Assembly: GCA_951406725.2 (NCBI GenBank) | Contig: OX597818.1 | Location: forward strand, 89,404,001-89,468,000 | Reading direction: 5' to 3' | Length of the DNA: 64,000 bases | Origin: Octopus vulgaris | Lineage: Eukaryota | Part shown: piece after piece, positions 30,831 through 57,105 of the stretch | Layout: each line of letters opens with the position of its first letter | Position numbering within the stretch: the first letter of the stretch is position 1 | Program-made: the position numbers and the translations under genes | Notes under the pieces: model-generated | What the model saw: the letters and a program-made list of their open reading frames with translations, nothing else | The model's database searches: none | What the model was told of the DNA's origin: nothing

Positions 30831-31078
30831 TACATTATTTACATTCGACGGATATTTGTCCTCATCTTGTTTGTTGTTAACACAACGTTTCGCCTTCTTC
30901 AGGTGTCTTGGGGAAATTTCGAACCTGGGTTCTCATTCCTAAGGTATTCTTCAATGGACGTAGAAGGGACATAACTCAACTTCAATTCCTGCCAACGGGC
31001 ATATGGTGTAGTGGTTAAGAGCGCTGGGTACTAACCCCAAGATTCTGAGTTCGATTCCAAGCAGTGACCTGAACAGTA

Positions 31079-31112
<34 letters not shown>

Positions 31113-31289
31113 CATCGAAAAATACCTTAGGAATGAGAACCCAGGTTCGAAATTTCCCCAAGACACCTGAAGAAGGCTTGGAAGGTATATCAGCTGAAAC
31201 GTGAACAACAAACAAGATGACAAATATCCGTCGAATGTAAATAATTTAAATAATGTACATAATTCATCGTCTCATAAATATAGAACTGT
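30831..31289 (+). mobile_element. tRNA-headed element with minimal hammerhead and inverted 5' copy; 13-bp TSD
   Basis: TSD AGGCTTCTTTCTT at 30818-30830 / 31290-31302; inverted arms ~30831-30956 / 31113-31257; A box TGGTGTAGTGG 31004-31014; B box GAGTTCGATTCC 31047-31058; (AAT)n; GACAC-CTGAAGA-AGGCT..AGCT-GAAACGT at 31162-31202. Confidence 0.8.
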
Positions 31290-31465
31290 AGGCTTCTTTC
31301 TTGTTACTAAGTCTACTTACAAGACTGGTCAGCCTGGAGTTAAAGTAGAAAACAATAGCCCAAGGTATTACACACAAGGAGACTGAACCTGAAACCATGT
31401 GTGACCAAGAAGAAAGCTTCTTAGCCTCACAGCTACCCTTGCACAATTGATAGAATCAGTATCAT

Positions 31466-31773
31466 TTAACACTAGAAGTACCAACATTTCTTACTTCCTG
31501 CAAGGACCATAGTGGTCGTTTTTGACCGATATTGAAAATCTTTATTTAATATAATTTATTTTAAATGTAAGCTAATGCAGTGAATAAAGGATTCGAAAAA
31601 TTTATTTATGTTCAAAAATATATACACACACATATATATGAAATGGGTTCAAAAATATATACACACACATATGTATGAAATGGTGCTCATGATTGTGCAT
31701 TCAGTAGTCGTAGAAATTAAAAAGTAGAAAGCAAAAGCGGTCATACACGACTGCTTGGTACTTCTAGTGTTAA
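31466..31773. mobile_element. TTAA-flanked MITE
   Basis: TTAACACTAGAAGTACCAA / TTGGTACTTCTAGTGTTAA inverted termini. Confidence 0.8.
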
Positions 31774-31796
31774 GTTATAAAAATAAAGAAAACTTC

Positions 31797-32309
31797 TATC
31801 GTTGTATTTCGGAATGGTCATTTTGCCAGTTTAGCCAATAAAAACATGCGCACTATATTGGTGTTACTTTGCTTCAGTGTTATTTATTTTTTACATTGAA
31901 CTTAATCTTATTTCGAATGTATATAAACAGAAGATACAAATATTACAGGCATTTCCCCCCACACAAACACTAACTAAACATAGACGCACATAGAGATATA
32001 CGCATGCACAAATGAAGACACATACAATAGAAATACAAAATGGCTGACAGTTAGTAAGGAGAGACACAAAGAAGAAAGCAAAGGACCACTGATGCGGTCA
32101 CAGGAGTGTGACAAAAGAACTCTGGCCGTAATAAGATTAAGTTTAATGTAAAAAATAAATAACACTGAAGCAAAGTAACACCAAATATATAGTGCGTGTG
32201 TTTTTATTGGCTAAACTGGCAAAATGACCATTCCGAAATACAACAATATCTGTTTCAACACAAGATTTTACATTAAAAAAATCATGCACAACAAATATAT
32301 AAACGTAAC
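31797..32309 (+). mobile_element. Non-coding element with degenerate hammerhead and inverted 5' copy; 12-bp TSD
   Basis: TSD AAAGAAAACTTC at 31785-31796 / 32310-32321; arms 31797-31912 / 32130-32248; GACCA-CTGATGC-GGTCACA GGAG TGTGAC-AAAA-GAAC-TC-TGGCC at 32084-32127. Confidence 0.72.
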
Positions 32310-33781
32310 AAAGAAAACTTCAAAACTTAACAATATTTAATTATCCAAGAAATAAATACAATAAAATATTTTAAAGGAAAAAAAAAAACATAATTTGAGA
32401 AAACTTCCGCCACCAATGACAAAAACTAAGAAATGTCAACCATCTTCAAGGTTAGCAACACTATAAACCAAACACCAAGAAGTATCATGGTTGACTGAAT
32501 CGATACCCACTAAAGTCGACCTCCACTGTCATATTTCAGAATTCAAACAACACATGCTCATCCAACTTCAAGACAATAGCACAGTAATGCAGGGTGCGGC
32601 AGAGAGGACAGACGTTTTGAAATGGCTATTACTCAGCCCCAGACGGAGGGACATATGTCCGACAGGTACCATTCAGTCCATGGTATCTTAACATTTTCTC
32701 TTTCTTTCCAGGTGAAGCCATGGTGCTGTGGTTGATAGAGCATAACGAATCTGTCACAGCAGTTTAGCGTGAGTTTCAACACCACTTCAACATTTACCAA
32801 GCTGTTCTCATTCGTAACACAATCTTATGTTGAGTGAATGCACTTAGTACATAAGGTACATTAATGAATAGGAGACCGGTGGGGGCCCCATGAATGGTAT
32901 GGACCCCAGAATGCATCAATGAAAACAGACACTACATGATGGATGTTGTTTTCCACACTTGATTTTGACAAATGCTAATTCAATATGGACACACTGATGT
33001 CGATAAAAATTTGTTTGCAGCTAAAATTATTGATTTTGTGAATTTTTCAAAAACGTCCATCTACTCTGCCCCACCCTGTACTTTTGAGTCTGTTGTATAG
33101 GCTTATGGGACCCAGGGTGGTGGGATGCAGTAAACTAAAGACCTGCCCCAGGAACTGTGGAATGTTTTGTTTTTTAAATATGTATGAAGAGGAGATTAGG
33201 TGGGTTCTTAAAATACAAATAATGGTTTATAACCTAGTCTGGAAGAATGGAAGGCAAAATTGAAGCCCCCACCCCACCCCATTATGCTTGAGTTCAAAAA
33301 TCCTACTAAAAGGTGTAATAATACTGTAAGACATCTTAACTTTAGCTCTACTAGTGTTTTTAATTCACCGATGTGATGTTGCTTCCTAATGGAACAACAT
33401 ATTGGCTGAAGCTATCCATTATTACTTTGTTACAAACGTATCGAGACCTGGGAGACTAAGTTTCCACCATCCTTCCAAGAACAGATCATCATCATCATCA
33501 ACATCCGTTTTCCATACTGGCATAGGCTGGATGGCTTGACAGGATCCTGTGAGCCACAGGGCCATGTTAAACACTAATCTCAGTTATAACTTGGTTTCTA
33601 TAACTGAATGCCCTTCCTAACACCAACCACTTTATAGTATGTACTGACTGCTTTTTTTTTTTATTTTGTCACCAGCACTAACTACAAACTAAAGCAGTGC
33701 ATTGGAAAATAATGTAAAGTACTTGTTTCTTCAATATTCTTTAAACCAGAACTTTCGGTGATATCAAGGCAACAAGTAGGA

Positions 33782-34009
33782 TTAACCTTTTAGCTTTTAA
33801 ACTGGCCATATCCGGCCAAAATATTTTACCTGCTTTAGGTTCAAACAGGCCAGATCTTGCCTATCACACCTACCCTACAATGTCATTCTGAAAATAAACA
33901 GTTATAACATCAAAATCTCAAAAATACAAGATAATCTAGGATTAATTTCAAGTAATGTAAGTAAATAAGCATTTCATTCAATAGAATAATCTAAATGCTA
34001 AAGGGTTAA
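33782..34009. mobile_element. TTAA-flanked MITE (same family as 23492-23709 and ~59800-60011)
   Basis: TTAACCTTTTAGC...GCTAAAGGGTTAA termini. Confidence 0.75.
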
Positions 34010-35284
34010 GAGAAAGATAATCATGTAAGACCATTTGTTTACTCTGTTCTGTTCCATTATATTACGTGGTTGAGAAAAAACACTACCTTAGAAATAAGAC
34101 TATCACAGGCTAATCCCACTCTCACCAAGAAGATTCCTTGTACCAGTTATATATCCTATGCCAATCCCTCAGAAATTGAAATGATGTAGAATTTAGTGTT
34201 CTTTCTATAAAATGAGACACCCGTGTGAGTCTTGTGAACCTGCAAACTGCAAGATGATTGTCAAATCATTTTTAGACTTATCTGCTTGCAGTGGATGGAT
34301 AGGTGGGAATCAGAGTTAGATCTGTGTCGAATGAGATGGATGGAATGACACGAAGAGAAGAAATATAACAGTCGTTATCTGTTTCACAAGAGAGAATTAC
34401 AGTGATATGGCTGAAGTGGAATTAGAGGGAAAAGTCAAGATGTTTTAATATGTCTGGTCTATATAGACATAATCATCAGTGACGTAGATAGGCATCAGCA
34501 ATAAATACAAGGGTGACAGGGAATAACTTCGTCCATCATATTTGTAACAACACATTCAACAAGATCAATCAACTCCAGTGGGGCTGATCTATAAACTTCA
34601 TAACGATTCAAATGAAATTTCTTTTTTTTTTTTATTTCTTAACCCATTAAGGCATAGTGTTCCCCCAAACAGATCAGTCAGAAAAATTATACATAACAAA
34701 ACATTTATCGATTATAATTAATTGTTAAATGAAAATTAAACTTATGCATAAATGGGTTAAAAAAGTAAAAGAAACAAAGATGAAAAAACAAAAAAAAAAA
34801 AAAAAAAGATCAGAGGGAGAGAACATTTGTGTTTCTAGCAGTGGCCCTTACTTTATGAATATGTTCCAGGCACTGTTAATCATTAGAGAAGAAGAGTCGA
34901 GATTAAAACATCAGTCAGTATTCTCTTCAAAACACATTTTTTAAATCCATTTGTAGAGCACTTGGTTTTCTGGAGGAAAGGGGGGGGGGGGGTTCTCTCC
35001 AGACTCAGATGAGCACTGGTTTCTTTCTATTAATGCCAGTGTTTTAACTTTGTTGTTTTAGCAACAAACGTTAACAGCTTTCTGTAGCTACTGAAACGCA
35101 AGAGCCACCTCACACTATATAATGGTGGGAACAAATGGAGAGAGGAGATGAGAGAGAGAGAAAAATAGACATTATATCAGATATATTTACAATTCATTAA
35201 GCAGAAAATATTATCGAATATATTTATACTGTATACACACACATATACACATGCATACATATATACACATATACATACACACAC

Positions 35285-35341
<57 letters not shown>

Positions 35342-36694
35342 CATACATGCACACACATACATAAGCTTTTAGCAATATATATATATATATATATATACAT
35401 ACATAAGCTTTTAGCAACTGTATAAGCATCCATAGACACAAAGCATTGATATGGTTTAGGAGCAGAAGCTGTTTCAGATTAACCATAATCCTTTCACAAA
35501 CTACAGAGGATCATCGAGTCATGTAATGTAACTAACTCTGAACTAAGACACCAGTGTATTACTTCAGGTAACAAGTCCCTGTCTGCCTTCTGATAACCAG
35601 GTAGAGCAGGACAATGTAGCATTATAGTTTATTTCTTTAGTAATCAAACTGCCAAGAGAGAGGTTTGTTCTATATCACAGCATGAACTAGCTCCTTCATT
35701 ATGGACATTATTTCTAACTACCAAAACAGTATTTTCTTCACTAATATCCGCTGTACATATGTATGAGTTTATGCGTAAATATACAGATGTGGAGACACAC
35801 ATATTGCTGTATATGCATTTACAACTGTGTGTATGTACGTTTATTAAAAAATTACTGATGACTCAACCATTTTGTTACCATATATCTGCTGAAATGCACT
35901 GCCTCTGTTTCATATTTTGCAAATAATCAAGAATTAAAATGAGTGACATTATTAAGCTGTTGTTTGTAATATAAATTTACATGAAATTTTAAAAGAAAGT
36001 TTTAATTTAGATCGTTTTAAAACAAGGAATTCAGATCATAGAACCAAGAGTGGTTTCTGGTCGGATGGCATCAAAAGGGTTAATAGAAACCCAGTGTTTG
36101 TGCACACAAGTGCAAGTATGTGTGCACTGATTTGTGAATGTGTGCACATATATTGAAGCAGGGGTTCAAAACATAATAAAGCTTTAAAGTAAAATTACAA
36201 CTTGTGGAAGAGGATCTTATAAAGGGAGAGCACAGTAAACTGGGGATGGGACCATATGTCTTGAAGGCAGGATTTCAGAGACCAACAAAAGGGAGAGAAA
36301 CCGTATGTGTGTATATAAAGATATAACTGTGTAGGTTTATAAATCCTTTGTTCTTGCTATATATCACAAAGATGGAGTTAAAAATGGCTTTAATTTACAT
36401 CAATTTTATTGGAATGCTTCAACTGTTACCTGTGGTATCAATATGTTAGTGAGTATGCATGTATATTTATATATGTGTGTATTTCATATATATATATATG
36501 TAAAGAGAGAGAGAGCACAGATTACACAAATATATCTGCTTACATACCTTGTATATGTATAAATAAATATTCCATTCATTACTGTATTTAGTATTTACAC
36601 AAACATTATCAACAGAAACATGTGCATGTGTGTATATGTATATTTCGCCATATATGAATATACTTTACACACAAACTACATATACATATATATA

Positions 36695-36730
<36 letters not shown>

Positions 36731-36856
36731 AAACAGTGTATGTTTTATAAAATATTAAGGTTTACAAAGGAAAAGAAGTTCACAGTACATGAAATGCCAG
36801 TCACCCAGTGGAAAGGTGGCTGGCAGATTGGTCAGCTCTTCTGGTCAATATGTAAC

Positions 36857-36881
36857 TCATCGCAGGTTCAATTCTTGAGAT
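36857..36881 (-). CDS. TMEM30A: CDC50A probable terminal coding exon
   Basis: Strong poly-T/ccttgtAG acceptor; phase 2 gives (R)SQELNLR*. Short, so supported mostly by splice signals. Confidence 0.6.
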
Positions 36882-38189
36882 CTACAAGGGAAAAAAAAAA
36901 AAAAAAAAGGAAATTTTAAAAGAGATATCATATACACTATGTGTCCTGAAATTGCCTTCTACCACATATCTTAAAGGCCCATTTTTACAGCTTATCATTA
37001 TCATCCAACATCCGTTTTCTAAGCTGCCATGGGTTGGATGGTTTGGCAGGGGCTTTTGAGGAAGAAAACCAAACTACGCTTCACTGTCTGTTTTTAAAAA
37101 ATGCTACCAGTTTTTTAAACCTTTCCTACACCTCCCACCCTCACTTCTAAAATGTGAGTAGTCACATAGCCTCTCTACAGCATGAAACCTGTTCTGCGCA
37201 AGCCCTTTTCTCTCATACTCTACCTCTCCCTACTTCTTATTCCTTGAGCATAAACTTAAGTTGCCCCACCCACTTAAGGTTAGCAGTCTTGCAAGCATTA
37301 CTGACATCCTCAACAGTGCTAGAATCATGAAAAATGCACCCTGCATGTGCTGCAAAGTGGTTGGTGCTAAGAAGGGCATTCTCCACGCCACAGAAGACAT
37401 TAGTGCATGATGCAGTCCTTGAGCCCATCAAATCCTGTCAAACTGTTCAACCCATGCCAGGGCGGAACAAGGGACATCAAATGATGATTATGAGATGATA
37501 TTAGATTTTAAACCTCTCAACACCAGATACTGTGCCTCCACTCAGTCAAGGAGTCTTGTCATGCAAGGACTACAAAAAAAAAAAAAAAAAAGCACCCAAA
37601 TACACACTATAAAGTGGTTGTCATCAGAAAAGGGCATCCAGTTTTAGAAATCATGCCAAAGTAGACATTGAAGCTCAATGCAGTCCTCTGAACCATTCAA
37701 TCCATGCCAGCGTAGAACATCAGCATCATTTAACCTCTGTTTTCCATGTTGCCATGGGTTGGACAGTTTGACCAGAGCTGGTAAAGGCTCTATCATCTGC
37801 TCTGGCACAATTTCTGGCATAATTGAAACCACAACCTTATGATCATGAGTCTAATACCCTAACCATTAAGCCACATGCCTCCACAAAAAAAAACAAAAAG
37901 GGGTTACATAACAAACAAACAAAACAAGGGTTAAATAAGAAAAAAAATACCATGGAGACACACACACAAAACACATCAATGCTAGATATGTATGGAAAAC
38001 AAAACGTTTTGGTGTTACTGATTTAATGCTTACTTCCCATAAGGCACTTACGCTTGTCTCTTTCTCTCCCTCTTTCCTTCTGTTTATGCATGCGAGCTTC
38101 TTCTTGTCTTGAGACAGCATTCACCCAGGGTGGGTTGAGCTGGCTTCAGTCATCGTCAATGCTGCATCTCTCACAAACGCCGACCAGAC

Positions 38190-38531
38190 CTGGCGATTTG
38201 AGGCTAACAACCACATGATCTCCAACCACTCCTTATTCCAGTGGCGAACACCATAGATATTGGGACCTAGGTTGGGTTACAGATCAGCCTTGACTGTCAT
38301 CAGCCAGGTTTTTCGTTGTCCACCACATCGCTTTTGCCAACCCTGAAGGGAAGCTGGGTCAATTGCTTCATGGAAGAATTCTCCTGGTTGACGACGGAGG
38401 GCATGACCCAGCCAACGCAGACGTCTCGTTAGGATGACTTTTCGGAGGGAGGTGATTTTGCACTGGTGTCGCACCGAATTGTTGGAGACAAAGTGATGCC
38501 ATCGGACACAAAGGATGCGGCGTGTGAGCAT
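38190..38531 (-). mobile_element. RTE LINE ORF C-terminal fragment
   Basis: RRILCVRW..FVSN..V...RRLRWLGHALRR...GGQRKTW motif. Confidence 0.82.
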
Positions 38532-39041
38532 CTAGTTATGGTGGTATATGTGTATGATGTTTTTCTCTTTCTGCCTCACTCACTTTATCTGTATGTGTAC
38601 ATTTCAGTGCGGGTGTGTGTACACCAAAACGTAGTTGCTTAAAGAGATCCAAAGTCCAATCAGCCGTGCCAGATCGTCAGGCGGCAAGCTGGCAGAATCG
38701 TTAGCACGCCGGGCGAAATGCGTAGCCGTATTTTGTCTGCCGTTACGTTCTGAGTTCAAATTCCGCCGGGGTCGACTTTGCCTTTCATCCTTTCGGGGTC
38801 GATTAAATAAGTACCAGTTATGCACTGGGGTCGATATAATCGACTTAATCCGTTTGTCCTCTCTGTGTTTGGCCCCTTGTGGGTAGTAAAGAAATAAGTG
38901 TCTAAACGGCTGCAGCCAATCATTTCATTCTGAAGACAAACACACACATACACAAAAGCACAAATATGCACACAAAAACACACACACACACAAGCACAAA
39001 CATGCACACAAATACACAAGCCAATGCAAGAGAACACTTAC

Positions 39042-39207
39042 CTCTTTCCACATCTGAAACGAATGAAAAACAGAACGATTCCTAGGAGGATACAGATGCA
39101 GCCAACAACCAGGTAAGTGATGCCCAGAAAAGGATTCTTGCCTCCCAGCCATGACATTGTAGTCAACACAATACGTTTGGTGCCACCGAAACTGGTCACA
39201 GGATAAT
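39042..39207 (-). CDS. TMEM30A: CDC50A coding exon (second TM helix)
   Basis: (N)[54 protein letters not shown]; this frame is not in the ORF track; donor GTAAGT, phase 2. Confidence 0.93.
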
Positions 39208-39574
39208 CTGGGAGTCACTGGTTAAAGAAATCAACAAAACAAAACAACACAAAAAACACAGTTTCCTGTATGTGCATCTCAATTTTAGAGAATGTATATG
39301 TGTGTGTATATACGGCCCATGTTTTGCTTCATGGCAGTGAAACATGGGCTGTGACTGCTGAAGACATGCAAAGGTTCGAAAGAAATGAAGCTAGCATGAT
39401 CCACTGGATGTGTAATGTCAGTGTGCACATGTGACAGAGTGTAAGCGCCCGGAGAGAAACTTGGACATAAGAGGTATTTGATGTGACATGCAAAAGGAAT
39501 TAGCTGTCTTTTGGCTGCTATTTCTAAATTTTATGTATGTGGTGAAGCAACTTGTTGCTAAACCCTTAATTATA

Positions 39575-39612
<38 letters not shown>

Positions 39613-39937
39613 CATCCATCCATCCATCCACACACACACACACATATATATAACCTGTGTCAATGGGTATAAGTATGTGCTGTTCTTGTGGGTGTCTTTT
39701 ATTCATTTCAGTCATTAGATTGTGATCATGCTGGAGCACTGCCTTAAGGAAATTCTAGTCAAATCATCCCCAATACTTTTTTTCTTTTTTTTAAAACATG
39801 GTACTTACTCAGTCTGGTTGCTATATTTAGAAGGACAAAATACCCACATATAGGCTCCTTCATTGATTTGCATGAGAGAGTTGAAGAAAAAAAATGTCAT
39901 GATAATCAAAGAATTACAAACATAAAAACAAGGATAC
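39208..39937 (-). other. U12-type (minor spliceosome) GT-AG intron
   Basis: 5' site GTATCCTT; branch sequence TTTCTTTAAC (39230-39221) ending 13 nt from the exon; no polypyrimidine tract. Confidence 0.9.
39312..39492 (+). mobile_element. RTE LINE fragment inside the U12 intron
   Basis: LLHGSETWAVTAEDMQRFERNEASMIHWMCNVS (YGSETW-like motif). Confidence 0.72.
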
Positions 39938-40159
39938 TGTAGTTGATTGTTACCCAATATCTACCAGCCGGTAGATTATCCGAAAATATACCAGTATGGT
40001 TAATACGGCGGTGAAGTTTACGGAATGTTGGTAACGCTGCAGTGCGCATCCACACAATTAGATCTTCATTGTGGTAGCCATTATCATCATCTGTGTTGTT
40101 TGGATCAAGGTCCCAGATGCTCTTCTGCCAATAGGGAGGCTTAACATACTGTGAGTTCA
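39938..40159 (-). CDS. TMEM30A: CDC50A coding exon
   Basis: NSQYVKPPYW...GYHNEDLIVWMRTAALPTFRKLHRRI...YWVTINY. The acceptor ttcaAG at 40160 was chosen for phase compatibility and is less certain. Donor GTATCCTT is U12-type. Confidence 0.9.
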
Positions 40160-40434
40160 CTTGAATTGAAAGACGATTTCACATTTAAATAGCTTATCAG
40201 ATTTACATAGTTTGACTTTCTATCAATATCATATTACACGGTCAGTCCAAAATTACTTGTAATTTAATCAAGTTTATCTCCTTCAAAATAGCCCCTTCAA
40301 CTCTTAACACCCACACCAAATGATTTCCTGGTTTTGTTTTAATGCATTTAATTTACTCTCAAATATTAGAAGAATTAATTTTAGCAGAGAGTCACAATAA
40401 TTATAATAACAGTAAATAATATCTAATAACAATA

Positions 40435-41970: not shown

Positions 41971-42042
41971 CAATTATAATTACAAACAACACAGAAGAAA
42001 AAAATAAACAAGAAACACAGAAGAAAATATAAGTGTCTTTAC

Positions 42043-42153
42043 ATGGCTGTGATGGGTTACGAAATTTCACTTTCTTATCAGAATCCCAAGCAATCCCAGT
42101 CTTGATCAGTGGCACAGTTCTTGATCTGTTCACATAGTCCAATTGGAAAGAAT
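42043..42153 (-). CDS. TMEM30A: CDC50A coding exon
   Basis: (D)SFQLDYVNRSRTVPLIKTGIAWDSDKKVKFRNPSQP; taacAG / GTAAAG, phase 1/1. Confidence 0.88.
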
Positions 42154-42904: not shown

Positions 42905-43632
42905 GATCTTTACCTTTTGACCGACAGATTTAAAAAATAATTTTTTGTAACTAAACACTTTCAAACTTTGTATACTGATAGAATGTGTCACATAAAACAT
43001 CTTTTACTCTTGGCGTTGTTGAAAAGATTCTGTATTTTGGAAGTTATTTCTTGTTAAAGTTGTTGTATTTCAGTAATTTCAACCAATCAATGATGTGTAT
43101 TCAGCTGAATAAAATTACTGCCATTGTTTGTCAACAACTTCCAGCAGTGTATATGTCGTTTGTCACTGTTATTTATGACATATTTCATCTCAGTTACGTT
43201 TGTATGAATAAACGAGTGTATATGAAGCATGTTTACTTCATTGCACCACCATAATCGTTCGTGCTTCATTTTTCATTTTTTTCCCATAACTCTAACCCTA
43301 AAACCCCAACACCTTAACCCTAACCCTAAAACCAGTACAAACACACGAACGATGTCATAAATAACCGCGACAAACGAAATATGCACCGCCGATAGTTGTT
43401 ATTGACAAACAACAGCAGTAATTTTATTCAGCTGAATACATGTCATTGATTGGTTGAAATTACTGAAATACGACAACTTTAACAAGAAATAACTTCCAAA
43501 ATACAGAATTTTCTCAACAACGCCAAGAGTAAAAGATGTTTTATATGACACATTCTACTAGTATACAAAGTCTGAAAGTGTTTAGATACAAAAAATTATT
43601 TTTTTAAATCTGTCAGTCAAAAGGTAAAGATC
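42905..43632. mobile_element. Foldback/MITE with ~300-bp terminal inverted repeats and central (TAACCC)-like repeats
   Basis: GATCTTTACCTTTTGAC... / ...GTCAAAAGGTAAAGATC ends; arms pair from ~42905-43205 to ~43335-43632; centre CTAACCCTAAAACCCC..TTAACCCTAACCCTAAAACC. Confidence 0.85.
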
Positions 43633-45001: not shown

Positions 45002-45049
<48 letters not shown>

Positions 45050-45170: not shown

Positions 45171-45210
45171 ACAAAATAAAATAGAGAAGAGTTAATTTGA
45201 ATCAACATAC

Positions 45211-46558: not shown

Positions 46559-46699
46559 CTTAAAGTTATTCTTGAGATCAATCTCTATACGACACTGACA
46601 GTTAGATGTACTGTTGATCTTGAGGATTTCAGAGCAGGTTGTATTGGCAGTACTCTGAATACTAACACAGTGGGTGTAGTCAGCTGTTATTTCCATCAC
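46559..46699 (-). CDS. TMEM30A: CDC50A coding exon
   Basis: VMEITADYTHC...CQCRIEIDLKNNFK; ctgcAG / GTAAGG, phase 0/0. Confidence 0.9.
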
Positions 46700-47233
46700 C
46701 TGCAGTAAAAGACAAACGTACAGTTGCACTGTTCAGTTATTTATCCACACTCATTACAAGGGACCCACTTCTATGTTGGGAGTACAACACAGCAAGAAAA
46801 ATCTCAACAACTAACATTTCAGCAAGTGCCACAACTTAGTAAGCACTAACATTCACACATCTATACACACACACACCACATATATCTATCTATCTTAATT
46901 TCACAACAAAAGATCTTATCTTAGACCCTTTCATTACACCATACACACACACAGACATATATATATATATAGGCATGGCTGTGTGGTAAGAAGCTTGGGC
47001 AAGTGTCTTCTACTATAGCCTTGAGAGTGGATACGGTAGATGGAAACTGAAAGCCCATCATATATATATATAGGTGCCGGAGTGGCTGTGTGGTAAGTAG
47101 CTTGCTTACCAACCACATGGTTCCGGGTTCAGTCCCATTGCATGGGACCTTGGACAAGTGTCTTTTACTATAACCTTAGGTCGACCAAAGCCTTGTGAAT
47201 GGATTTGGTAGACGGAAACTAAAAGAAGTCTGT

Positions 47234-47305
<72 letters not shown>

Positions 47306-48104
47306 AACAGGTTGCTTGACTGCATACCGAAAAATAGAAATAGCAGTCAAGAATGCTTATTTCTATCAAAGTTGGACTCCAGGCACGACAAACCCTGTAA
47401 TTCACATACGCAAAACAGAAGGAAAAAGCCTTTAAAAGCCTTTATAGAAATTATTTACTCTTATCATTATATTACTATTTGGATTTTTCACTCCCTTTGA
47501 CAACCTAATTGTTCCCATCTTACGGAACTATTTTTGTAATGCGCATGGCAAAATTTTGGAGGGAAGATTTATGAATTCAAACGTCTATGTAGGTTTAGCT
47601 TTTGCTCACTTTCTTCAAATATTTTGATGTCGCATGGTCAGAAGGTTTGAGGTACGTAGCATTTGATAAATCTATGATAAATCTTTTTCAATGGAAAGCT
47701 GTGCTGAAGAAGGATGTGAAATATATATGCAATATATATGAAATATATCAAAAATATATGGAATATATATTCAATATGTTTATAATCCAGAAACATGATG
47801 TTCACAGATAACCGCCAGACTTCGTATTCGTTATCTATTCCTTCTGTTTTGCGTATGTGAATTACAGGGTCTGGCATGCCCGGAGTCCAACTTTGATAGA
47901 AATAAGCATTCTTGACTGCTATTTCTATTTTTTCAGTATGCGGTCAAGCAACCTGTTTTGCCTGTCCCTTTTTCTTATATACAATATATATACTGAACTT
48001 TACAGAAGTTCCTGCCGGTAATCGGCTATATTTACATACCGAATTCTACCAGTAAATAATTGGGTTTTTTTTAAAAGCCTTTATAGAAATTATTTACTCT
48101 TATC

Positions 48105-48109
<5 letters not shown>
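47306..48109 (+). mobile_element. Non-coding HHR-bearing element (retrozyme-like / non-autonomous PLE) with partial tandem and inverted 5' copy, in (TA)n
   Basis: Inverted repeat 47306-47424 / 47838-47957; 40-bp direct repeat 47431-47470 / 48070-48109 defines a 639-bp unit; (TA)n on both sides. Confidence 0.8.
47699..47807 (+). ncRNA. Type I hammerhead ribozyme with long AT-rich stem II insert
   Basis: Stem I CTGTG/CACAG; CTGAAGA (47704-47710); GGAT...ATCC; GAAA; stem III ACA-TGA-TGT; GUU triplet. An A-A apposition sits at the stem II base. Confidence 0.72.
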
Positions 48110-48171
<62 letters not shown>

Positions 48172-50573
48172 TTATGTGCCTGTGTTTCTCCCCAAAACAT
48201 CGCTTGACAACCGATGCCAGTGTGTTTATGCCCCCATAACTTAGCAGTTCGGCAAAACAGACTGATAGAATAAGTACTAGGTTTACAAAGAATAAGTCCT
48301 GGGGTCAATTTGCTCAACTGAAGGTGGTGCTCCAGCATGGCTATAGTCAAATGACTAAAACAAGTAAAAGAATATATATATATATGTGTATCTTTGTGTC
48401 TATGTTTGTCCCCCTCCACAGCTTGACAGCCGGTGCTAGTGCGTTTACATCCCTGTAACTTTGGTTATAATGACCAATGGAATAAGTACCAGGCTTATAA
48501 AAAATAAGTACTGGGGTCGATACATTCAAGCAACATTCTTCAAGGCAGTGCCCCAGCATGGCCGCAGTCTAATGACTGAAGCAAGATATATATATATATC
48601 TTTATTGCCCACAGAAGGCTAAACATAGAGGGGACAATCAAGGGGATTAAGTCGATTACAGCGACCCCAGTGCCTCACTGGTACTTATTTAATCAACCCT
48701 GAAAGGATGAAAGCAAAGTCGACCACAGTGGAATTTGAACTCAGAACATAACGGCAGCCAAAATACTGCTAAGCATTTCGCCCAGTGTGCTAACGTTTCT
48801 GCCAGAGTGCCACCCTATATAAAAGATATATACACACACACACACACACACACATATAGAGGGTGCTCTGGCTAAATTTAACAGTTTGCATAAAAGGAAA
48901 AGAAAACACAATATCCCAAGCAAAGATAAAAAAAATTTCAAAAATATCAGAAAATACCAATTTTGCTTACAGCTGAGAGATAATAATTTAATCCAAGTAG
49001 CTGCCCTCAACTTCCACCACAGCCTCAAAACAACCCCAGAACCTGACAAGTGTTTCTGTGTCCCTGAGAAGATCTTCAAATACTTCATCAATCTTATTTC
49101 TTTACTGCCGACAATGGGCTACACACAGAGGGGACAAACAAGGACAGACAAACTGATTAAGTCGATTACATTGACCCCAGTGCATAACTGGTACTTATTT
49201 AATCGACCCCGAAAGGATGAAAGGCAAAGTCAACCTCGGCAGAATTTGAACTCAGAACGTAACGGCAGACGAAATACCGCCAAGCATTTCGCCCGGTGTG
49301 CTGACGATTCTGCCAGCTCACCACCTTATCTTGGCCACTTGCTAAGCCTTGGTGTTGCAAGCAGTAGTTGGTGCCTTTCTCAGGCACACACTACACAGTA
49401 AAAGGGTAAAGACCCCACTTCAGTCAGGAATGTGATCATAGGATTGCTCCTAGAACGTACCCCTCCAAGGCACATGTCCGGGCAAGGTTGTTTGTGGAAG
49501 ACCAGTAGTCGCCCATGCATACCAACCTCCCCTCTCCACACCACCAATGTTATCCAAAGCAAAGATCAATACAGCTTGGAACCAGTGACATTGCAACTCA
49601 TTACAACAGTTGAGTGAATTAGAGCAACATGAAATAGTGTTTTGCTCAATAATACAACACACAGCCCAGTCTGAGAATTGAACTCAGTACCGCATGATGG
49701 TGAGCCCAACGCTCTAACTACTGAGCCAGGTGCTTTCACAGTAATCTATGGGATTACAATCAGGAGAATGAGGCCAGAAATTGGGGCTGAATCCTGCAGC
49801 CAAACATATGGCTTTCAAGCAGCAACCTTCTCAAGGCAAAATTTGACCACAGTCTCCAGTAGCTTCACATAGCCACCTGATCTGAACTTAAGGACCTGTT
49901 CATCAGTTGTTGGATGAATTCTGGCATGCAGGCACAGCCAGAATGCTTGCTGTGTCCCTTCCTGCTGGTCATGGCTTTGTAGTCTCTATTGCAGCTATCC
50001 ATGTCACAGAACACTGAACAACAGTCATGATGTTGACATGAATCATCATGATACAGGTAACTGTTTTCCAATATTCAGATGACTTCCAGTCCGCCGTGTC
50101 AGCTGACTTTTTCTCAATTGCAACTTCAATCTTTATATTCTCCAATGCTGTTGACTATTCACCAATACATCAAGCTGTTCCCAAAAAAGGAAACAAAAAA
50201 AAACATCAGTTATCCCAAACACCTTGTGTGTGTGTGTGTGTGTATAGGTGTGGCTGTGCTGGCAGAAACATTAACACACCAGACGAAATGCTTAGCGGTA
50301 TTTCATCTGCTGTTACGTTCTGAGTTCAAATTACGTTGACTTTGCCTTTCATCCTTTCGGGATCGATAAATTAAGTACCAGTTATGCACTGGGGTCAATG
50401 TAATCGACTTAATCCCTTTGTCTATCCTTGTTTGTCCTCTCTATGTTTAGCCCCTTGTGGGCAATAAAGAAATAAGAAGCTTGCTTCCCAACCACATGGT
50501 TCCAGGTTCAGTCTCACTGCGTGAGCCAACCAAAGCCTTGTGAGTGGATTTGGTAGATGGAAACTGAAAGAAG

Positions 50574-50604
<31 letters not shown>

Positions 50605-50904
50605 CTGTCCCCCTACCATCACTTGACAACCAATGTTGGTGTGTTTACGTCCCTGTTACTTAGCAATTTGGCAAAAGAAACTGATAGCATAAGTCCTGGG
50701 GCCGATTTCTTCAATTAAAACCCTTTAAGGTGGTGCTCCAGCATAGCCACAGTCAAATGACTGAAGCAAGTAAAAGAATATACATATATCTCAATATAAT
50801 GAACCCCGCATCCAAAATCTTAACTATTCTGAAAATCAATTGGAACATAAAAGCAGTCAACAGATGAGGAAAACAATCATGAATTGGTTAATGTGATCAC
50901 TTAC

Positions 50905-51038
50905 ATGGTTTGATGTCAGCAGTAGGACAGCTCCGAGAGGAATGAAGGTGATTCCAAGAGCAAAGAATGCTGGAAGAACAGTTTCTGCTGTTAGAATAGG
51001 CTGCCATGCAGGGAGACGTTGCTGCTTAAACTTTGTAT
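50905..51038 (-). CDS. TMEM30A: CDC50A/TMEM30A P4-ATPase flippase beta subunit, first visible coding exon (start exon lies upstream, probably beyond the window)
   Basis: (D)[25 protein letters not shown]...LLTSNH with hallmark [11 protein letters not shown]; acceptor tcttctAG phase 1, donor GTAAGT. Confidence 0.94.
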
Positions 51039-51270
51039 CTAGAAGAAAACAGAAAAAGAAAAGAAAAAAAATAATAATAATAATAAAAAGAGGATGTAAG
51101 GTCAACGTAGGAGATAATTAAATGGCACTGACCAAGGGGATATAACTCATGTTTAGAGCTAAGCTCTACAGTTAATAATCTTTCAAACACACTTTCTAAT
51201 AAACAGAAATTTATTGAAAACAATTTGATAGAAACATAAAAAAGCTTAAGTTCTTTCTTCAAAACTGACA

Positions 51271-51706
51271 AGGCGTAGGAGTGGCTGTGTGGTAAGTAGC
51301 TTGCTTACCAACCACATAGTTCCAGGTTCAGTCCCACTGTGTGGCACCTTGGGCAAGTGTCTTCTACTATAGCCTCAGGCTGACCAAAGCCTTGTGAGTG
51401 GATTTGGGAGACGGAAACTGAAAGAAGCCCATCATATATATATGTATATGTGTGTGTGTGTGTGTGTGTGTTTGTCTGTATTTGTCCCCCCAACATCGCT
51501 TGACAACCGATGCTGGTGTGTTTACGTCCCTGTAACTTAGCAGTTTGGCATAAGAGACCGATAGAATAAGTACTAGGCTTCCAAAGAATAAGTCCTGGGG
51601 TTCATTTGCTCGACTAAAGACAGTGCTCCAGCATGGCCACAGTCAAATGACTGAAACAAGTAACAGAGTAAAAGTCTAATTCAAATGACTGAAACAAGTA
51701 AAAGAG
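51271..51706 (+). mobile_element. tRNA-derived SINE family B (CORE-like CCTTGGGCAAGT box, internal TA/TG microsatellite)
   Basis: GGAGTGGCTGTGTGGTAAG head, GGTTCAGTCCC B box, TGACTGAAACAAGTAAAAGA tail. Other copies at 1890-2258, 9230-9610, 9620-9965, 25205-25497(-), 28352-28738(-), 42330-42680, 47072-48370 (split), 50475-50780, 58812-59238(-). Confidence 0.88.
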
Positions 51707-52609
51707 TAAGTCTAATTCCAGTTTTACTTTTGGGATACCATCAGTTTTTGTGTACCAACAGTTGTTTTTTTCCCTTTCAATTTACTAAATATAAACATCC
51801 GCCTCCCATTTTTATCTTCAAAACTTCCATATCTATCATCATCATCGCTTAACGTCCGCCTTCCATGCTGGTATGGGTTGGATGGTTTGACAGGAACAAG
51901 AGCTGACCAGGCAGGAAACTACACCAGGCTTCTGTATCTGTTTTGGCATGGTTTTTACTGCTGGATGTCCTTCCTAATTCCAACCACCCTGCAGAATGGA
52001 CTGAGTGCTTTTTACGTGGCACCAATGCTAGCAGGGTTACCAAGTAACTTGCAAAACAAGGAATCCTTGAGAGGGAAGAGAGATTTGGAGGAGATGATCT
52101 TGTGTCAGATGATGAAAGGTTAGAGTGTGACAACAAATTTTTATTCTGATTCATCATCATCATCATCATCATTTAATGTCTGTTGTCCATGCTGGCATGG
52201 GCTGGATGGTTTGACCAGAACTTGCAAACCGGGGACCTGCATCAAACTCAAGTCTGATTTGGCATGGTTTCTATGGCTGGATGCCCTTCCTAACACCAAC
52301 CACTTTACAGAGTGTACTGGGTGCTTTTACGTAGTGCTTTGATGTGGTGTCACACGAGTGCTTTTACATGGTGTCGCATGTGCGCTTTAACATGGTATCA
52401 CATGGGCACTTTTACATGGTGCTTTTATGTGACACTCCGCAATCTTAACATGAAACAATAATCTTGTGATCATTAAGGCAACGCCCTAGCTACCAGTCCG
52501 GGCTCCTTTACTTTATTATAGTGGAAATTTGGTTTCCAAATTTAATTTGTTCCTGAAGGCTGTTCCTCACCCCAAATGTTTATAAACCAAAACTATAGTG
52601 ACCGAGACC

Positions 52610-53228
52610 GTTGGAAATATGCTGTGCTTGAGAAGACCTGGCAAGCCAAGTGAGACCATTACCCGTGGCTTATGTCAGGGGTGCAACCAGCCCACTTATG
52701 CGTACCTTTCCTGCATTGGACACTAAACTCTGCTTGCGAAGACCTGTTGAGGCAAGTGAAATCAAAATCAAATTCGATGACTGGCATCCGTGCTAGTAGA
52801 GCGCTAAGAGCACCATCCGAGCATGATCATTTCCAGAGCAGCTGACTGGCTTCCATACCGGTGGCACGTAAAAAGCACCATTCAAGCGTGATCGTTACCA
52901 TCGCCGCCTTACTGGTACTTGTGCCAGTGGCACATGAAATAACATTTGAGCATGGTCATTGCCAGTGCCGCTGGAGTGGCTCCTGTGCAGGTGGCACGTA
53001 AAAAACACAGTTTGAGCATGGCTGTTGCCAGTACCGCCTGACTGGCCCTCATGCTGGTGGCACATAAAAGCACCCACTACATTCTCTTGGCGTTAGGAAG
53101 GGCATCCAGCTGTAGAAACTCTGCCAGATCAGATTGGAGCCTGGTGCAGCCATCTGGTTCGCCAGACCTCAGTCAAATCGTCCAACCCATGCTAGCATGG
53201 AAAACGAATGTTAAACGATGATGATGAT
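52610..53228 (+). mobile_element. Non-autonomous repeat family D (RTE-associated-like) with internal ~55-bp subrepeats and (GAT)n tail
   Basis: GGCGTTAGGAAGGGCATCCAGCTGTAGAAAC...CCATGCTAGCATGGAAA..GTTAAACGATGATG. Copies at 3305-3780(-), 5462-5845(-), 27240-27645, 45485-45780 (two, inverted), 51835-52440(-), 58480-58750, 60055-60520(-), 61280-61625, 63270-63590. Confidence 0.8.
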
Positions 53229-53276
53229 CAAATTCAAGAGAAAACACTGTAAATTTGAACATGGATGTGTGCAGAG

Positions 53277-53322
<46 letters not shown>

Positions 53323-53348
53323 AAAAAAGCAACAAGAATGGATTAAAA

Positions 53349-53436
53349 TCTCGGTACGATCGTTTCGTACGAGGACATCTTTAATAAGCTACAAAAAATG
53401 CAGTGAATACAGATGGCTCGTACTCGTCAGCCGAAA
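53349..53436 (-). ncRNA. Type I hammerhead ribozyme, inverted copy
   Basis: Reverse complement of 56868-56955 within the left inverted arm. Confidence 0.83.
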
Positions 53437-54369
53437 AAACATCAGAGAATTCCCAAACATCAAAAGGGGTAGATACAAAAGAGGTTGTAAGATTAACTGC
53501 ATCGAAGAAAGTTCGATTCATGGAGATCCGATGAAAGGTTTTAAACTTACAGAATTTGTGCATGTCTACATATAGCTCATATTGAATTGATAATCAAGTT
53601 GTGTGAAGAAATCTTCGGATACAGTCATGCAAAATTTCTGAAAATCCGAGTAAGAAGCAAAGTGACTGTCATATCGTGTAGAGGAAAGTCTGAGTAAAAA
53701 GCAAAGTGACTGTCATATTGTGTAGAGGAACAGATTGTTATTGAAATTTACAAGAATTCGCATATAAGTTCGATTCTTGGAGATCCGATGAAAAGTCTTG
53801 AACTTACAGAAAATGTGCATGTCCTTATAGTTCATAATCCAGTTTTGTGAAGAGATTTAGGGTACAATCATGCGAAAATATCAGGGAATCCGAATGAGAA
53901 GCAAAGTGACAGTCTTATACTGTAGAGGTGCAGGTTGTTAATGAATTTTACAAGAATCACAGAGAGAGGAGGAAGGAAGTAGAATTTAATCAGTTACTGC
54001 TATTAAAGCTATCAAAGAGAAAGGGAAGGGGAAGCTAAGGGGATGGACACAAATTGATACTACCAGAAAATCTAAGCTTGTTTAGTGCAAAATTCGAACT
54101 GAGGTCAACAATTTATTTCTTTATTTATAAATGTTACTATTAATAGATTGTCAGGTTACAATGAGAGGTCACTAGAAAGGAAAGAAAAATGGGGTTGTTT
54201 TTTAATGAAACCAAACAATTATATTATTATTATACTATACTATACTACACTACACTATATTATATTATATTATTTTATATTATATTATATCACATCACAA
54301 TACACTACGATAGGTTTGGGATTAGCAGAATTAATTATTAGTGTAAAAGAAACTAAGAGATTTAACTAA

Positions 54370-55665
54370 CTAATTTTACATAGATGTAGATCTAATACAA
54401 CATCTAATCGTAATGATAATAAGTATAAGGATAAATACATAGACCATAACATAGATAGCCCTGATAAGACAATCTTAAATAAAATTAAGAAACATACAAT
54501 TAGTAACGTAGACAACAATAATGACCAAGCCAGAAAGGATAGTAGAAATAGTTTTACAACGGCAAAGTACCCTAATGATATTAAGAACATTAATAAAAAC
54601 ATAACAGTGAACACTTATAATAAGGATAAAATAAACTTGGTTAAAACTAGCAAACATGTTAACAGGAACATTAACAAATACAAAGAATCTGATGATGGTA
54701 GGATTAATTTTAACAACCCTAACTCTAGTGGGAAAAATTCTAGTAGCCCTAACTCAAATTCTAAGAAATTTAATAAGAAAGACATAATATGGCTAAACAT
54801 CCCTTTTAACTGTGCGGTTTCATCAGATATTCAGAGTAGATTCAAAACAATTCTAGAAAAAAATTTCCCATCCTCTCATAGATATCATAAAATTATTTCT
54901 AAAAAAACAGTCAGAATTTCTTATTCAACTCTCCCAAATATGTCCACTTTAATAGCTAAGATCAATAATAATAACTACAATAATGATAACATTATTTTAG
55001 ATAGCAGCACCAATAATATTAATAATGTTAGTAGGGCTTTAGAACCAAATGAAAATGTAGGAATACCAATAAATGATAATACTATTTTAGATAATAATAT
55101 TAACTACAATAATGATAGAGTTTTTTTAGATAATAACAATAATCAAAATCATGATAAATTTACCCGCTCTGCTTCGAACAACAGTAATATGAGACTTCTA
55201 TCCTCAAGTTATTCCACCTCTAATTATAATGCCCCTAGATGTAATTGCAGAATTAAATCAAAATGCCCGGCCCCTGGTTTATGCGGGTTAATTAACATAA
55301 TCTACAAATGCTCCGTAACCACAAATAATAATAAGTTCTCTTATGTTGGATGTACTGTAAATTTTAAACAGAGATTGAATAACCATCTCTCATCCTTCAA
55401 ATTACGTCATAAAGCTGATAGCACCACTCTTTCTAGTAAAATTTGGGAACTAAAAAACAAGAATATCAAATATAACCTTAATTGGGAATTAGTCAGAAGA
55501 GCAAAACCCTATAAAAATAGCAGAGTAGGTTGCCAACTTTGCTCCATGGAAGCATTTGAAATACTAATGTATAGAAATAATAGAGAAATTCCTTTAAACA
55601 GCAGAATTGAACTTGGAAATTCTTGTATACATGCTCGAGTTAAGACTCTTAAATATTTTAAATGA
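54370..55665 (+). CDS. Penelope-like element ORF C-terminal part: low-complexity linker, post-RT region, Cys-rich linker and GIY-YIG endonuclease; RT core absent
   Basis: IIWLNIPFN...VRISYSTLPNM; CNCRIKSKCPAPGLC; IIYKC...YVGCT..FKQRLNNH; CQLCSMEAFEI...LNSRIELGNSCIH. The frame stays open from the inversion junction (~54378) with no initiator ATG there. Confidence 0.88.
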   Translation, partial: LILHRCRSNTTSNRNDNKYKDKYIDHNIDSPDKTILNKIKKHTISNVDNNNDQARKDSRNSFTTAKYPNDIKNINKNITVNTYNKDKINLVKTSKHVNRNINKYKESDDGRINFNNPNSSGKNSSSPNSNSKKFNKKDIIWLNIPFNCAVSSDIQSRFKTILEKNFPSSHRYHKIISKKTVRISYSTLPNMSTLIAKINNNNYNNDNIILDSSTNNINNVSRALEPNENVGIPINDNTILDNNINYNNDRVFLDNNNNQNHDKFTRSASNNSNMRLLSSSYSTSNYNAPRCNCRIKSKCPAPGLCGLINIIYKCSVTTNNNKFSYVGCTVNFKQRLNNHLSSFKLRHKADSTTLSSKIWELKNKNIKYNLNWELVRRAKPYKNSRVGCQLCSMEAFEILMYRNNREIPLNSRIELGNSCIHARVKTLKYFK

Positions 55666-56867
55666 TATTTCAATTGATAACTGTATACTGGAATCACTTT
55701 GTATAAAATTCACTTTGACTTATATATCACTCCTACATAGTATATTATATATTTGACTAGAAAGATAAGATCTAACTAGCTATGATTATATTCTATCTCT
55801 GATTGCACTATTTAATACTTATTGATTTAAATTATTTGATTTATTTCTATTGGACCATATTAATAATTTAAATTTTGCTCTATTTTTATCTCCATTTCTT
55901 AGTCTATTTCACTTTAACCCATATATAAAAATTAGTTAGTTAAATCTCTTAGTTTCTTTTACACTAATAATTAATTCTGCTAATCCCAAACGTATCGTAG
56001 TGTATTGTGATGTGATATAATATAATATAAAATAATATAATATAATATAGTGTAGTGTAGTATAGTATAGTATAATAATAATATAATTGTTTGGTTTCAT
56101 TAAAAAACAACCCCATTTTTCTTTCCTTTCTAGTGACCTCTCATTGTAACCTGACAATCTATTAATAGTAACATTTATAAATAAAGAAATAAATTGTTGA
56201 CCTCAGTTCGAATTTTGCACTAAACAAGCTTAGATTTTCTGGTAGTATCAATTTGTGTCCATCCCCTTAGCTTCCCCTTCCCTTTCTCTTTGATAGCTTT
56301 AATAGCAGTAACTGATTAAATTCTACTTCCTTCCTCCTCTCTCTGTGATTCTTGTAAAATTCATTAACAACCTGCACCTCTACAGTATAAGACTGTCACT
56401 TTGCTTCTCATTCGGATTCCCTGATATTTTCGCATGATTGTACCCTAAATCTCTTCACAAAACTGGATTATGAACTATAAGGACATGCACATTTTCTGTA
56501 AGTTCAAGACTTTTCATCGGATCTCCAAGAATCGAACTTATATGCGATTCTTGTAAATTTCAATAACAATCTGTTCCTCTACACAATATGACAGTCACTT
56601 TGCTTTTTACTCAGACTTTCCTCTCCACGATATGACAGTCACTTTGCTTCTTACTCGGATTTTCAGAAATTTTGCATGACTGTATCCAAAGATTTCTTCA
56701 CACAACTTGATTATCAATTCAATATGAGCTATATGTAGACATGCACAAATTCTGTAAGTTTAAAACCTTTCAGCGGATCTCCATGAATCGAACTTTCTTC
56801 GATGCAGTTAATCTTACAACCTCTTTTGTATCTACCCCTTTTGATGTTTGGGAATTCTCTGATGTTT

Positions 56868-56955
56868 TTTCGGCTGACGAGTACGAGCCATCTGTATTCA
56901 CTGCATTTTTTGTAGCTTATTAAAGATGTCCTCGTACGAAACGATCGTACCGAGA
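56868..56955 (+). ncRNA. Type I hammerhead ribozyme in PLE 3' region
   Basis: Stem I TTTCGG/CCGAGA; core CTGACGA (56874-56880); stem II GTACGAG/CTCGTAC with ~43-nt structured insert; GAAA; palindromic stem III ACGATCGT; GUA cleavage triplet. Confidence 0.85.
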
Positions 56956-57105
56956 TTTTAATCCATTCTTGTTGCTTTTTTCCTATTTGAAATCACCCCA
57001 CTTGTCGTATGGTTAACACCATATAGATTTCCGGTGCATCCTAGTTAAGGACCATATTCATGTGAATTCTTTAGAATTCACTTGAATCTCAATTACTTAA
57101 CCATA

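Follow-up and report, generated by a model that had tools for sequence, protein, structure and literature searches.

Four elements with inverted heads

The window analysed here, a 64,000-nucleotide stretch of the Octopus vulgaris genome (assembly GCA_951406725.2, contig OX597818.1, positions 89,404,001 to 89,468,000), contains four elements associated with hammerhead ribozymes, labelled E1 (window positions 30831-31289), E2 (31797-32309), E3 (47306-48109) and E4 (53319-57105). Comparison with copies elsewhere in the genome identified parents of E1, E2 and E4 as Penelope-like elements (PLEs) encoding both a reverse transcriptase (RT) and a GIY-YIG endonuclease (EN), and the parent of E1 carries a tRNA-like module immediately downstream of its coding region.

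In agreement with a preliminary description of this DNA, sequence comparison recovered in all four elements an inverted copy of a subterminal segment, a body, and a tail lying outside the inversion. The arms are 83% identical in E1 (30826-30956 inverted against 31113-31253), 93% in E2 (31797-31915 against 32127-32248), 94% in E3 (47306-47424 against 47838-47957) and 99.5% in E4 (53318-54377 against 55928-56986), and the tails beyond the inversion measure approximately 36, 61, 152 and 119 nt, respectively. Two elements are flanked by target site duplications (TSDs) of the 12-13 bp originally reported (13 bp in E1, 12 bp in E2), the other two lie in (TA)n, and the four have no common sequence, the sole cross-match being one low-complexity stretch. 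Their features, including those of the pseudo-long terminal repeats (pseudo-LTRs), untranslated regions (UTRs) and open reading frames (ORFs), are as follows.

30818..30830 (+): E1 left TSD, 13 bp; right copy 31290-31302
30831..30956 (-): E1 arm in inverted orientation, its end belonging to the inner (tail-less) class; contains a hammerhead minus stem II, core 30896-30902
30957..30996 (+): E1 junction, with a templated insertion at 30964-30993
30997..31071 (+): E1 tRNA-Arg-like module, A box 31004-31014, B box 31049-31057; constant in the parent PLE pseudo-LTR
31072..31112 (+): E1 (AAT/AAC)n spacer from module to start codon
31113..31289 (+): E1 'tail', start of the next unit's Poseidon-type ORF (ATG 31133); ends at the outer end class
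Core 31167-31173, GAAA 31196-31199 (+): E1 minimal type I hammerhead overlapping the ORF start; cleavage site damaged
31785..31796 (+): E2 left TSD, 12 bp; right copy 32310-32321
31797..31915 (-): E2 inverted arm; inner end class, window 32248-32249
31916..32309 (+): E2 direct arm, 3' UTR/pseudo-LTR of a Neptune-like PLE; degenerate hammerhead 32089-32122
From ATG 32224 (+): last ~85 nt of E2, coding for the N-terminus of the parent 1312-aa ORF
47306..47424 (-): E3 inverted arm, preceded by (TA)n 47238-47303
47425..48109 (+): E3 direct arm, one 640-nt retrozyme unit, then (TA)n 48107-48158
47431-47472 = 48070-48111 (+): E3 42-nt terminal redundancy
47704-47802 (+): E3 type I hammerhead
53318..54377 (-): E4 inverted arm, copy of 55928-56986; intact hammerhead 53355-53430; preceded by (TA)n 53281-53320
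54370..55665 (+): E4 truncated ORF, 91-95% identical to a Hydra-clade RT+GIY-YIG protein over its residues ~530-730 and 869-1090
55666..57105 (+): E4 3' UTR; intact type I hammerhead 56874-56949 with palindromic stem III; then (TA)n
56987-57105 (+): E4 119-nt tail

Ends and arms of the genomic copies

The scanned genome comprised 2.8 Gb and gave 1,500-2,500 first-look candidates per family. Since only 40 of these were scored and 30 fetched for each family, the copy counts below hold for best-scoring copies; copy density estimated from incidental matches (0-4 loci per family) was too sparse for use. Arm length ranges from tens of nucleotides to kilobases and the inverted arm is missing from many copies, so that the arms, when examined genome-wide, are variable and not fixed terminal repeats of constant length. 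Inverted ends and target duplications are also what miniature inverted-repeat transposable elements (MITEs) of the DNA type would show, an explanation refuted by this range of arm lengths, by the copies without an inverted arm, by TSDs of variable length (6-16 nt in 16 of 28 E1 pairs) and by parents that encode RT.

In head-to-head pairs the outer ends fall into two fixed classes, long and short. One end of each class was observed in all 15 E4 pairs (57105/56986), 20 of 23 E2 pairs (32308/32249) and 23 of 28 E1 pairs (31289/about 31236-31263), and in the 13 E3 pairs the long end is common and the short end spread. Inner ends are independent of each other, and E4 junctions show microhomology of 1-5 nt (13 cases), blunt joins (5) or filler (10). 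A single cDNA folding back on itself, or twin priming of the L1 type that inverts an upstream part of the RNA, would be an alternative source of inverted arms, and short fold-backs do occur at the 5' hairpin of E1. Two of 28 E4 pairs, with inner ends within 20 nt of each other, would also suit such an origin; it is nevertheless most improbable for these families, as the arms overlap in sequence and end at two fixed sites, the inner ends of E4 lie >100 nt apart in 24 of the 28 pairs, and the tail is found on either arm.

Partial tandems, in which the 3' end also lies ahead of the ORF, were found at loci L151/L152, L189 and L385/L388/L399. The observed ends and arms match the published insertion pattern of PLEs (PMC8557442), in support of the earlier proposal that the layout is PLE-made, and E1, E2 and E4 have the truncated 5' ends, neighbouring inverted copy and optional tail of endonuclease-bearing (EN+) PLEs. 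By script count, 114 head-to-head junctions joined members of the same family and one crossed families. Mixed-family inversions were considered as proof of action in trans and set aside, as one of 115 by script plus one found by eye at the same locus are too few. Two apparent mixed pairs, both microsatellite-bounded, occur at locus L193. In one (L193:5810-6140), a sister family of E3 is head to head with an E2-like end; in the other (L193:6521-9860), short templated pieces connect a copy of the E4 family to a Neptune-type PLE in the same head-to-head arrangement. One enzyme dimer with two different RNAs would fit these pairs, as would separate insertions.

Coding parents of E4, E2 and E1

E4 had been described as an endonuclease-only element. 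RT+EN ORFs of 1090 and 1091 aa are present in its family elsewhere in the genome, and E4 is a 5'-truncated copy of a coding Hydra-clade PLE whose RT was lost by truncation. Pfam gave no match on the full E2 and E4 parent proteins, and clade assignment is motif-based: the E4 parent has RWR, DKT, CxCx5C, CxxC and CxH without CCHH, corresponding to the Hydra-clade marks (RW[KR], DKT, a CxCx5C linker, CxxC + CxH, no CCHH) given in section 11 of PMC8557442. It also has the hammerhead and (TA)n targeting ascribed to the clade there. Hydra-clade elements in that account tend to be shorter than 3 kb, whereas the E4 parent ORF alone reaches 3.2 kb because of Asn-rich inserts. An octopus Hydra family, Hydra-1_Obim, is already catalogued in the supplement to PMC8557442, and the E4 parent is a different family on a comparison by eye of the protein start and hammerhead. 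Upstream of the hammerhead, the E4 3' UTR contains internal direct repeats of 160-180 nt that are ~77% alike (56344-56795). In addition, an Octopus sinensis protein annotated as ankyrin-repeat has a segment 69% identical to the Hydra-clade RT, reflecting either a mis-joined gene model or capture.

The proposal that E2 represents a non-coding family moved in trans likewise gave way to a coding parent, as E2 is the 3' end (pseudo-LTR) of a PLE with its own RT and EN. Longer E2 copies extend upstream into a GIY-YIG ORF, and a search with that ORF returned parent ORFs of up to 1312 aa. Of 30 EN-anchored loci, 29 have E2 sequence on the 3' side of the endonuclease, and the remaining locus holds just the first 63 nt of E2 at its edge. 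The last 85 nt of E2 code for the first residues of the ORF, and the tail is therefore the start of the next tandem unit. The parent protein contains DKSG, YVDD and a CX4CxxC linker at residue 1186, in keeping with the CX2-5CxxC linker and CCHH endonuclease of the Neptune clade. By motif it is Neptune-like; a quick tree placed it on a long branch, apart from the other linker-bearing family.

Three parts make up the direct arm of E1: a module of 75 nt that contains A and B boxes, a stretch of (AAT)n, and a hammerhead segment that travels with the module (present in one arm of 28 of 29 head-anchored loci). The E1 parent came to light through tblastn and a pattern search for segments that lack (AAT)n ahead of them; the protein search gave 2,823 candidates, of which 150 were scored, and 102 loci from those were examined. 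The RT+EN ORF ends ~25 nt upstream of the module. In ORF-end arms, the module lies directly 3' of the stop codon in 84 of 96 and the hammerhead segment or tail is present in 79 of 96. The encoded protein has an RVT_1 match, is colinear in RT and EN with an 847-aa relative, and is 35% identical to an 836-aa Anolis protein that is presumably a Poseidon; tree comparison was limited to a quick tree with unnamed references. Its endonuclease has CCHH without the CX2-5CxxC linker finger, which is the Penelope/Poseidon pattern (PMC8557442). Every copy found is decayed, with differences of about 12-16% between copies. Where a copy is nearly full-length, the tail continues into the ORF, in a frame matching the N-terminus of the 847-aa relative, and the E1 tail, like that of E2, is where the ORF of the next tandem unit starts. 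Read in order, a unit begins with the module and (AAT)n, continues through the ATG, hammerhead and RT start sites into the ORF, and closes with the stop codon and hairpin, after which the next module follows. From sequence comparison, E1 is the pseudo-LTR of a decayed Poseidon-type PLE with a unit of ~2.65 kb and, as the 3' end of a PLE with its own RT and EN, is not the separate non-coding RNA moved in trans that had been envisaged.

Short E1 copies share several traits of tRNA-derived short interspersed elements (SINEs), namely a tRNA-derived head, A and B boxes and a length <700 bp. They depart from the SINE trait of needing a partner long interspersed element (LINE), their 3' part and insertion pattern being those of a PLE. 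A free-standing SINE with an unidentified PLE partner was rejected once the parent was found with the module attached. A longer E1 variant at L194 and L195, considered as a parent remnant, contains another element inside the (AAT)n run; at both loci this is the 3' end of a different retroelement, presumably Dong/R4-like. Flanking sequence at 30622-30651, ~200 bp from the insertion site, was the source of the filler at the E1 junction (30964-30993).

E3 and the hammerhead cores

E3 is the sole non-coding family of the three proposed. Its copies are arrays of 604-643-nt units, often with an inverted head, two of them containing 9 and 7 full units (the nine, the highest number, in one (TA)n site). 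The longest stop-free frame of the unit is 85 aa and 55 of 58 cores are intact, upholding the earlier view of E3 as a non-autonomous, non-coding hammerhead element. A sister family, X, is ~72% alike and has the same layout. E3 is a non-LTR retrozyme, a class already described. Because it is longer than a single unit and spans the cleavage site, the window copy would derive from an uncleaved multimer or a circular template and not from a cleaved linear monomer. Contigs from sequencing runs, guessed to be RNA, cover the E3 unit and 'go back 639' nt, which fits a tandem or a circle; they show neither start, strand nor circle. Units diverge less within an array than between arrays in most comparisons, a pattern that fits circle and multimer alike.

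A type I hammerhead had been claimed for all four elements. This is correct for E4, in which both copies are intact, and for E3, which has a complete core with a bulged stem II; the core of E1 is damaged (cleavage site lost in the direct copy, stem II in the inverted one), and that of E2 is non-canonical, with CUGAUGC and AAAA in place of CUGANGA and GAAA. A strict type I descriptor matched twice in the window, both times in E4, against 0.10, 0.05 and 0.0 matches expected at three stringencies from 20 shuffles. Rfam reported no hammerhead anywhere in the window, and neither hammerhead nor tRNA on the window elements, 17 loci or one short head stretch. Family-wide, CUGANGA and GAAA are intact in 75 of 79 copies of E4, 55 of 58 of E3, 44 of 77 of E1 and 4 of 91 of E2. 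Stem covariation, suggested earlier as a check, is evident as compensating changes between sister families; for instance, stem I covaries among E3, its sister X and an L252 element, and also among E4, F155 and an L234 element.

The E2 segment 32089-32122 belongs to a young, abundant PLE family that mostly has C at hammerhead core position 9 (CUGAUGC in 78 of 91 copies), and this core may represent either a dead ribozyme that left amplification running or a core variant. A second E2 hammerhead sought near 32165 has no closing stem. Neptune-type families in this genome (loci L233-L252, L193:9700-9860) carry the U3/A8 hammerhead core variant described in PMC4209133.

These results bear on the original model as a whole, that of an endonuclease-only PLE and three unrelated non-coding hammerhead RNAs mobilised in trans via circular RNA. 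A geometry common to elements without common sequence and the non-coding, tandem nature of E3 speak for it. It is very unlikely, given that E1, E2 and E4 each have their own RT+EN parent, that a single junction joins different families against 114 within families, and that E2 has spread with a non-canonical core. The model is refuted for E2 and E4, and for E1 it may be left only as short copies replicating on their own.

A tRNA-like module in the putative promoter position

We infer from the unit order of the E1 parent that the module occupies the position where the promoter of the pseudo-LTR must lie. The module itself probably works as an RNA polymerase III (Pol III) promoter, with a start ~7 nt upstream. 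Its A and B boxes are conserved among copies, and it aligns best to the tRNA-Arg genes of this genome (z 7.4 and 6.1, top among 25 distinct tRNAs). In 33 of the 61 short arms, the match to the parent continues for exactly 7 nt on the upstream side of the module, and a palindromic extension often comes next. None of the 19 tail-anchored arms reaching the module runs on into the ORF.

A bolder proposal, which we advance only tentatively, is that Pol III would read the whole coding unit of the E1 parent from a captured tRNA promoter, that terminators would have been purged from the coding strand, and that the element would thereby make its own hammerhead-SINE. Also in favour of Pol III activity in general, runs of four or more T (T4+) are absent from the coding strand across 2382 majority columns, and four near-full-length copies contain 1, 0, 1 and 0 such runs compared with 4.1-5.4 expected. 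Five other PLE ORFs of this genome contain 13, 9, 9, 4 and 6. Among Poseidon-like metagenome stretches (57 fetched, 33 retained at 0.8-2.8 kb) there are 152 T4+ runs in 43.9 kb; one stretch has none, and none of the 18 with a T4 expectation >=2.5 is free of them.

Alternatively, the module could be a passenger, an old SINE piece that a master Poseidon copy acquired in its 3' UTR, with RNA polymerase II (Pol II) making all RNA, the pile-up of 5' ends arising from RT stalling and snap-back at the hairpin, and the loss of T4 runs being due to chance. The hairpin lies exactly at the 5' peak and the palindromic extensions vary in length, both as this account would predict, and PMC10886601 holds that autonomous elements need Pol II, Pol III being weakly processive. 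We nonetheless consider the passenger account rather unlikely, as 69 of 130 module-reaching arms, mostly ORF-anchored, pass the hairpin into the ORF, yet none of the 19 tail-anchored arms does so; moreover, the spacing between the boxes and the 5' peak is that of a promoter, and the control PLE ORFs hold 2-4 T4 runs per kb.

A model of insertion and transcription

The explanation we favour, and hold to be reasonably likely, joins PLE double-start insertion with a Pol III module in the E1 parent. Published work reports that a PLE protein cuts and extends both strands and that two internal RNA start sites bound the tail; in vitro, both nicks of an anole PLE were primed at two internal sites of one RNA, and hammerhead cleavage was dispensable (PMC11167929). 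E2 has amplified despite its non-canonical core. By extension of the in vitro work, the RT-endonuclease would nick both DNA strands and begin a pair of cDNAs on a read-through RNA left uncleaved, using two internal sites that lie 3' of the hammerhead. These cDNAs, both truncated, would then be joined head to head via short microhomology or templated filler. In the E1 parent, Pol III would start ~7 nt upstream of the module, and RT would start ~300 nt into these RNAs, run off the 5' end and snap back on the terminal hairpin, yielding SINE-like short copies such as E1. E3 would use the enzymes of some (TA)n-targeting PLE; no match to E3 was found at 30 GIY-YIG ends, a small sample.

Several observations weigh against this explanation. 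ARAGORN found no tRNA in the window or on the head majority, Rfam did not score the module as a tRNA, and the common boxes raise the alignment score for any tRNA. The deficit of T4 runs is modest by element-internal nulls (P 0.039 by synonymous shuffle, 0.083 by first-order and 0.23 by second-order Markov), the test was made after the module had been seen, and runs of four or more G are also low in the same four copies (0, 1, 1, 0 compared with 2.6-2.9 expected); the nulls and the low G count speak for the passenger account as well. The 5' half of the E1 parent rests on 2-5 copies, and the copy sets were picked by best score with a head query that included part of the palindrome. The sharp 5' ends sit on a hairpin and could be an RT stop, and an ORF-linked copy, L356, contains a fold-back followed by a return to ORF sequence, a point that also favours the passenger account. 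Comparison of 69 ORF-linked with 61 short arms revealed no fixed diagnostic column, and a separate SINE lineage is thus not apparent; the short arms are less divergent than the ORF-linked ones, a difference confounded by how arms were picked. Uncapped RNA would need an unusual route of translation. The copies L385, L388 and L399 begin 25-80 nt downstream of the hammerhead cut and not at the module, and none crosses the cut, hinting that long E1-parent templates were self-cleaved (n=3). For E3, no PLE ORF adjoins the family or its sister in 30 + 30 loci, again a small sample, and the inner end is not one fixed site.

Other features of the window

An uninterrupted 369-aa frame on the minus strand (4366-5475) matches the DIE2/ALG10 glucosyltransferase (E 6e-86) and represents a large exon or a retrocopy. 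Two more fold-back elements, at 1207-1400 (arms ~90 nt) and 42929-43607 (210 nt-plus), contain no sequence of the four families and are likely of the DNA MITE type.

Comparison with known systems

Like known EN+ PLEs (Frangieh et al. 2024, PMC11167929; Craig et al. 2021, PMC8557442), the families of E1, E2 and E4 have a single RT+GIY-YIG ORF that begins within the pseudo-LTR, a hammerhead likewise in the pseudo-LTR, 5' truncation, an inverted copy next to the direct one, an optional tail bounded by two RT start sites, and target sites that are AT-rich or (TA)n. Tails of 30-40 nt are given for EN+ PLEs in these two papers, compared with 36-150 nt here. A tRNA-like module in the pseudo-LTR, as in the E1 parent, goes unmentioned in the portions of the two accounts drawn on. 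Our observations extend the model of two internal start sites, obtained in vitro for one lizard element, to genomic copies of three further PLE lineages.

E3 resembles the animal non-LTR retrozymes (Cervera and de la Pena 2020, PMC7229834) in its non-coding tandem units with one type I hammerhead each. Its units, at 616-643 nt, fall inside the 51-972 range of Li, Clavereau and Pollet (2026, bioRxiv 10.64898/2026.07.22.740005) and exceed the 170-400-nt retrozyme circles shown experimentally. That retrozymes are non-autonomous PLE derivatives is an idea already published in both of these sources. E3 differs from the known retrozymes they describe in that its arrays have PLE-type inverted heads and no parent pseudo-LTR was found for it.

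Like the octopus SINEs that Ohshima and Okada reportedly described in 1994, the short form of E1 has a tRNA-derived head, and it may already stand in a catalogue as a SINE. Dependence on a LINE is part of the SINE definition in PMC3531059, and the part of an octopus repeat annotation available to us (PMC13282606) makes no mention of ribozymes. Short non-autonomous Penelope elements are known from butterflies, with no tRNA link in the account consulted (PMC6685494). A literature search conducted outside Repbase, Dfam and most subscription papers turned up no coding PLE that carries either a tRNA module or a promoter for Pol III; Repbase, Dfam or the supplements of the 2026 preprint or SINEBase may list these families already.

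The closest parallels to the module are found outside the coding PLEs. TRIMp3 elements (Cassandra, Helenus and Ajax; Kojima 2024, PMC10886601) likewise have a Pol III promoter derived from a small RNA in a terminal repeat, but are non-coding LTR elements of 0.3-1.3 kb, whereas the E1 parent is a protein-coding PLE of ~2.65 kb. In the view of the same source, a coding retrotransposon requires Pol II, and the only retrotransposons for which it describes Pol III promoters are short and non-coding. In the SINE-like Sm-alpha elements of schistosomes, too, a type I hammerhead comes after a Pol III promoter within one short repeat; the accounts drawn on (PMC6765202, PMC8490949) give no coding parent for them, whereas the promoter-hammerhead segment of E1 is the end of an RT+EN element. 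Cap-independent translation after hammerhead self-cleavage has been reported (PMC13725137). If the whole E1-parent unit is a Pol III transcript, the question arises of how an uncapped RNA is translated, which touches on the purpose of the hammerhead in PLEs. The layout that first drew attention to these elements is thus known PLE biology, and what is new is a tRNA-like module in the promoter position of a Poseidon-type coding PLE. If it does act as a tRNA promoter, the short E1 copies would represent a SINE born inside its helper and not by fusion to a LINE tail, providing a route of origin for tRNA-bearing repeats of the PLE type.

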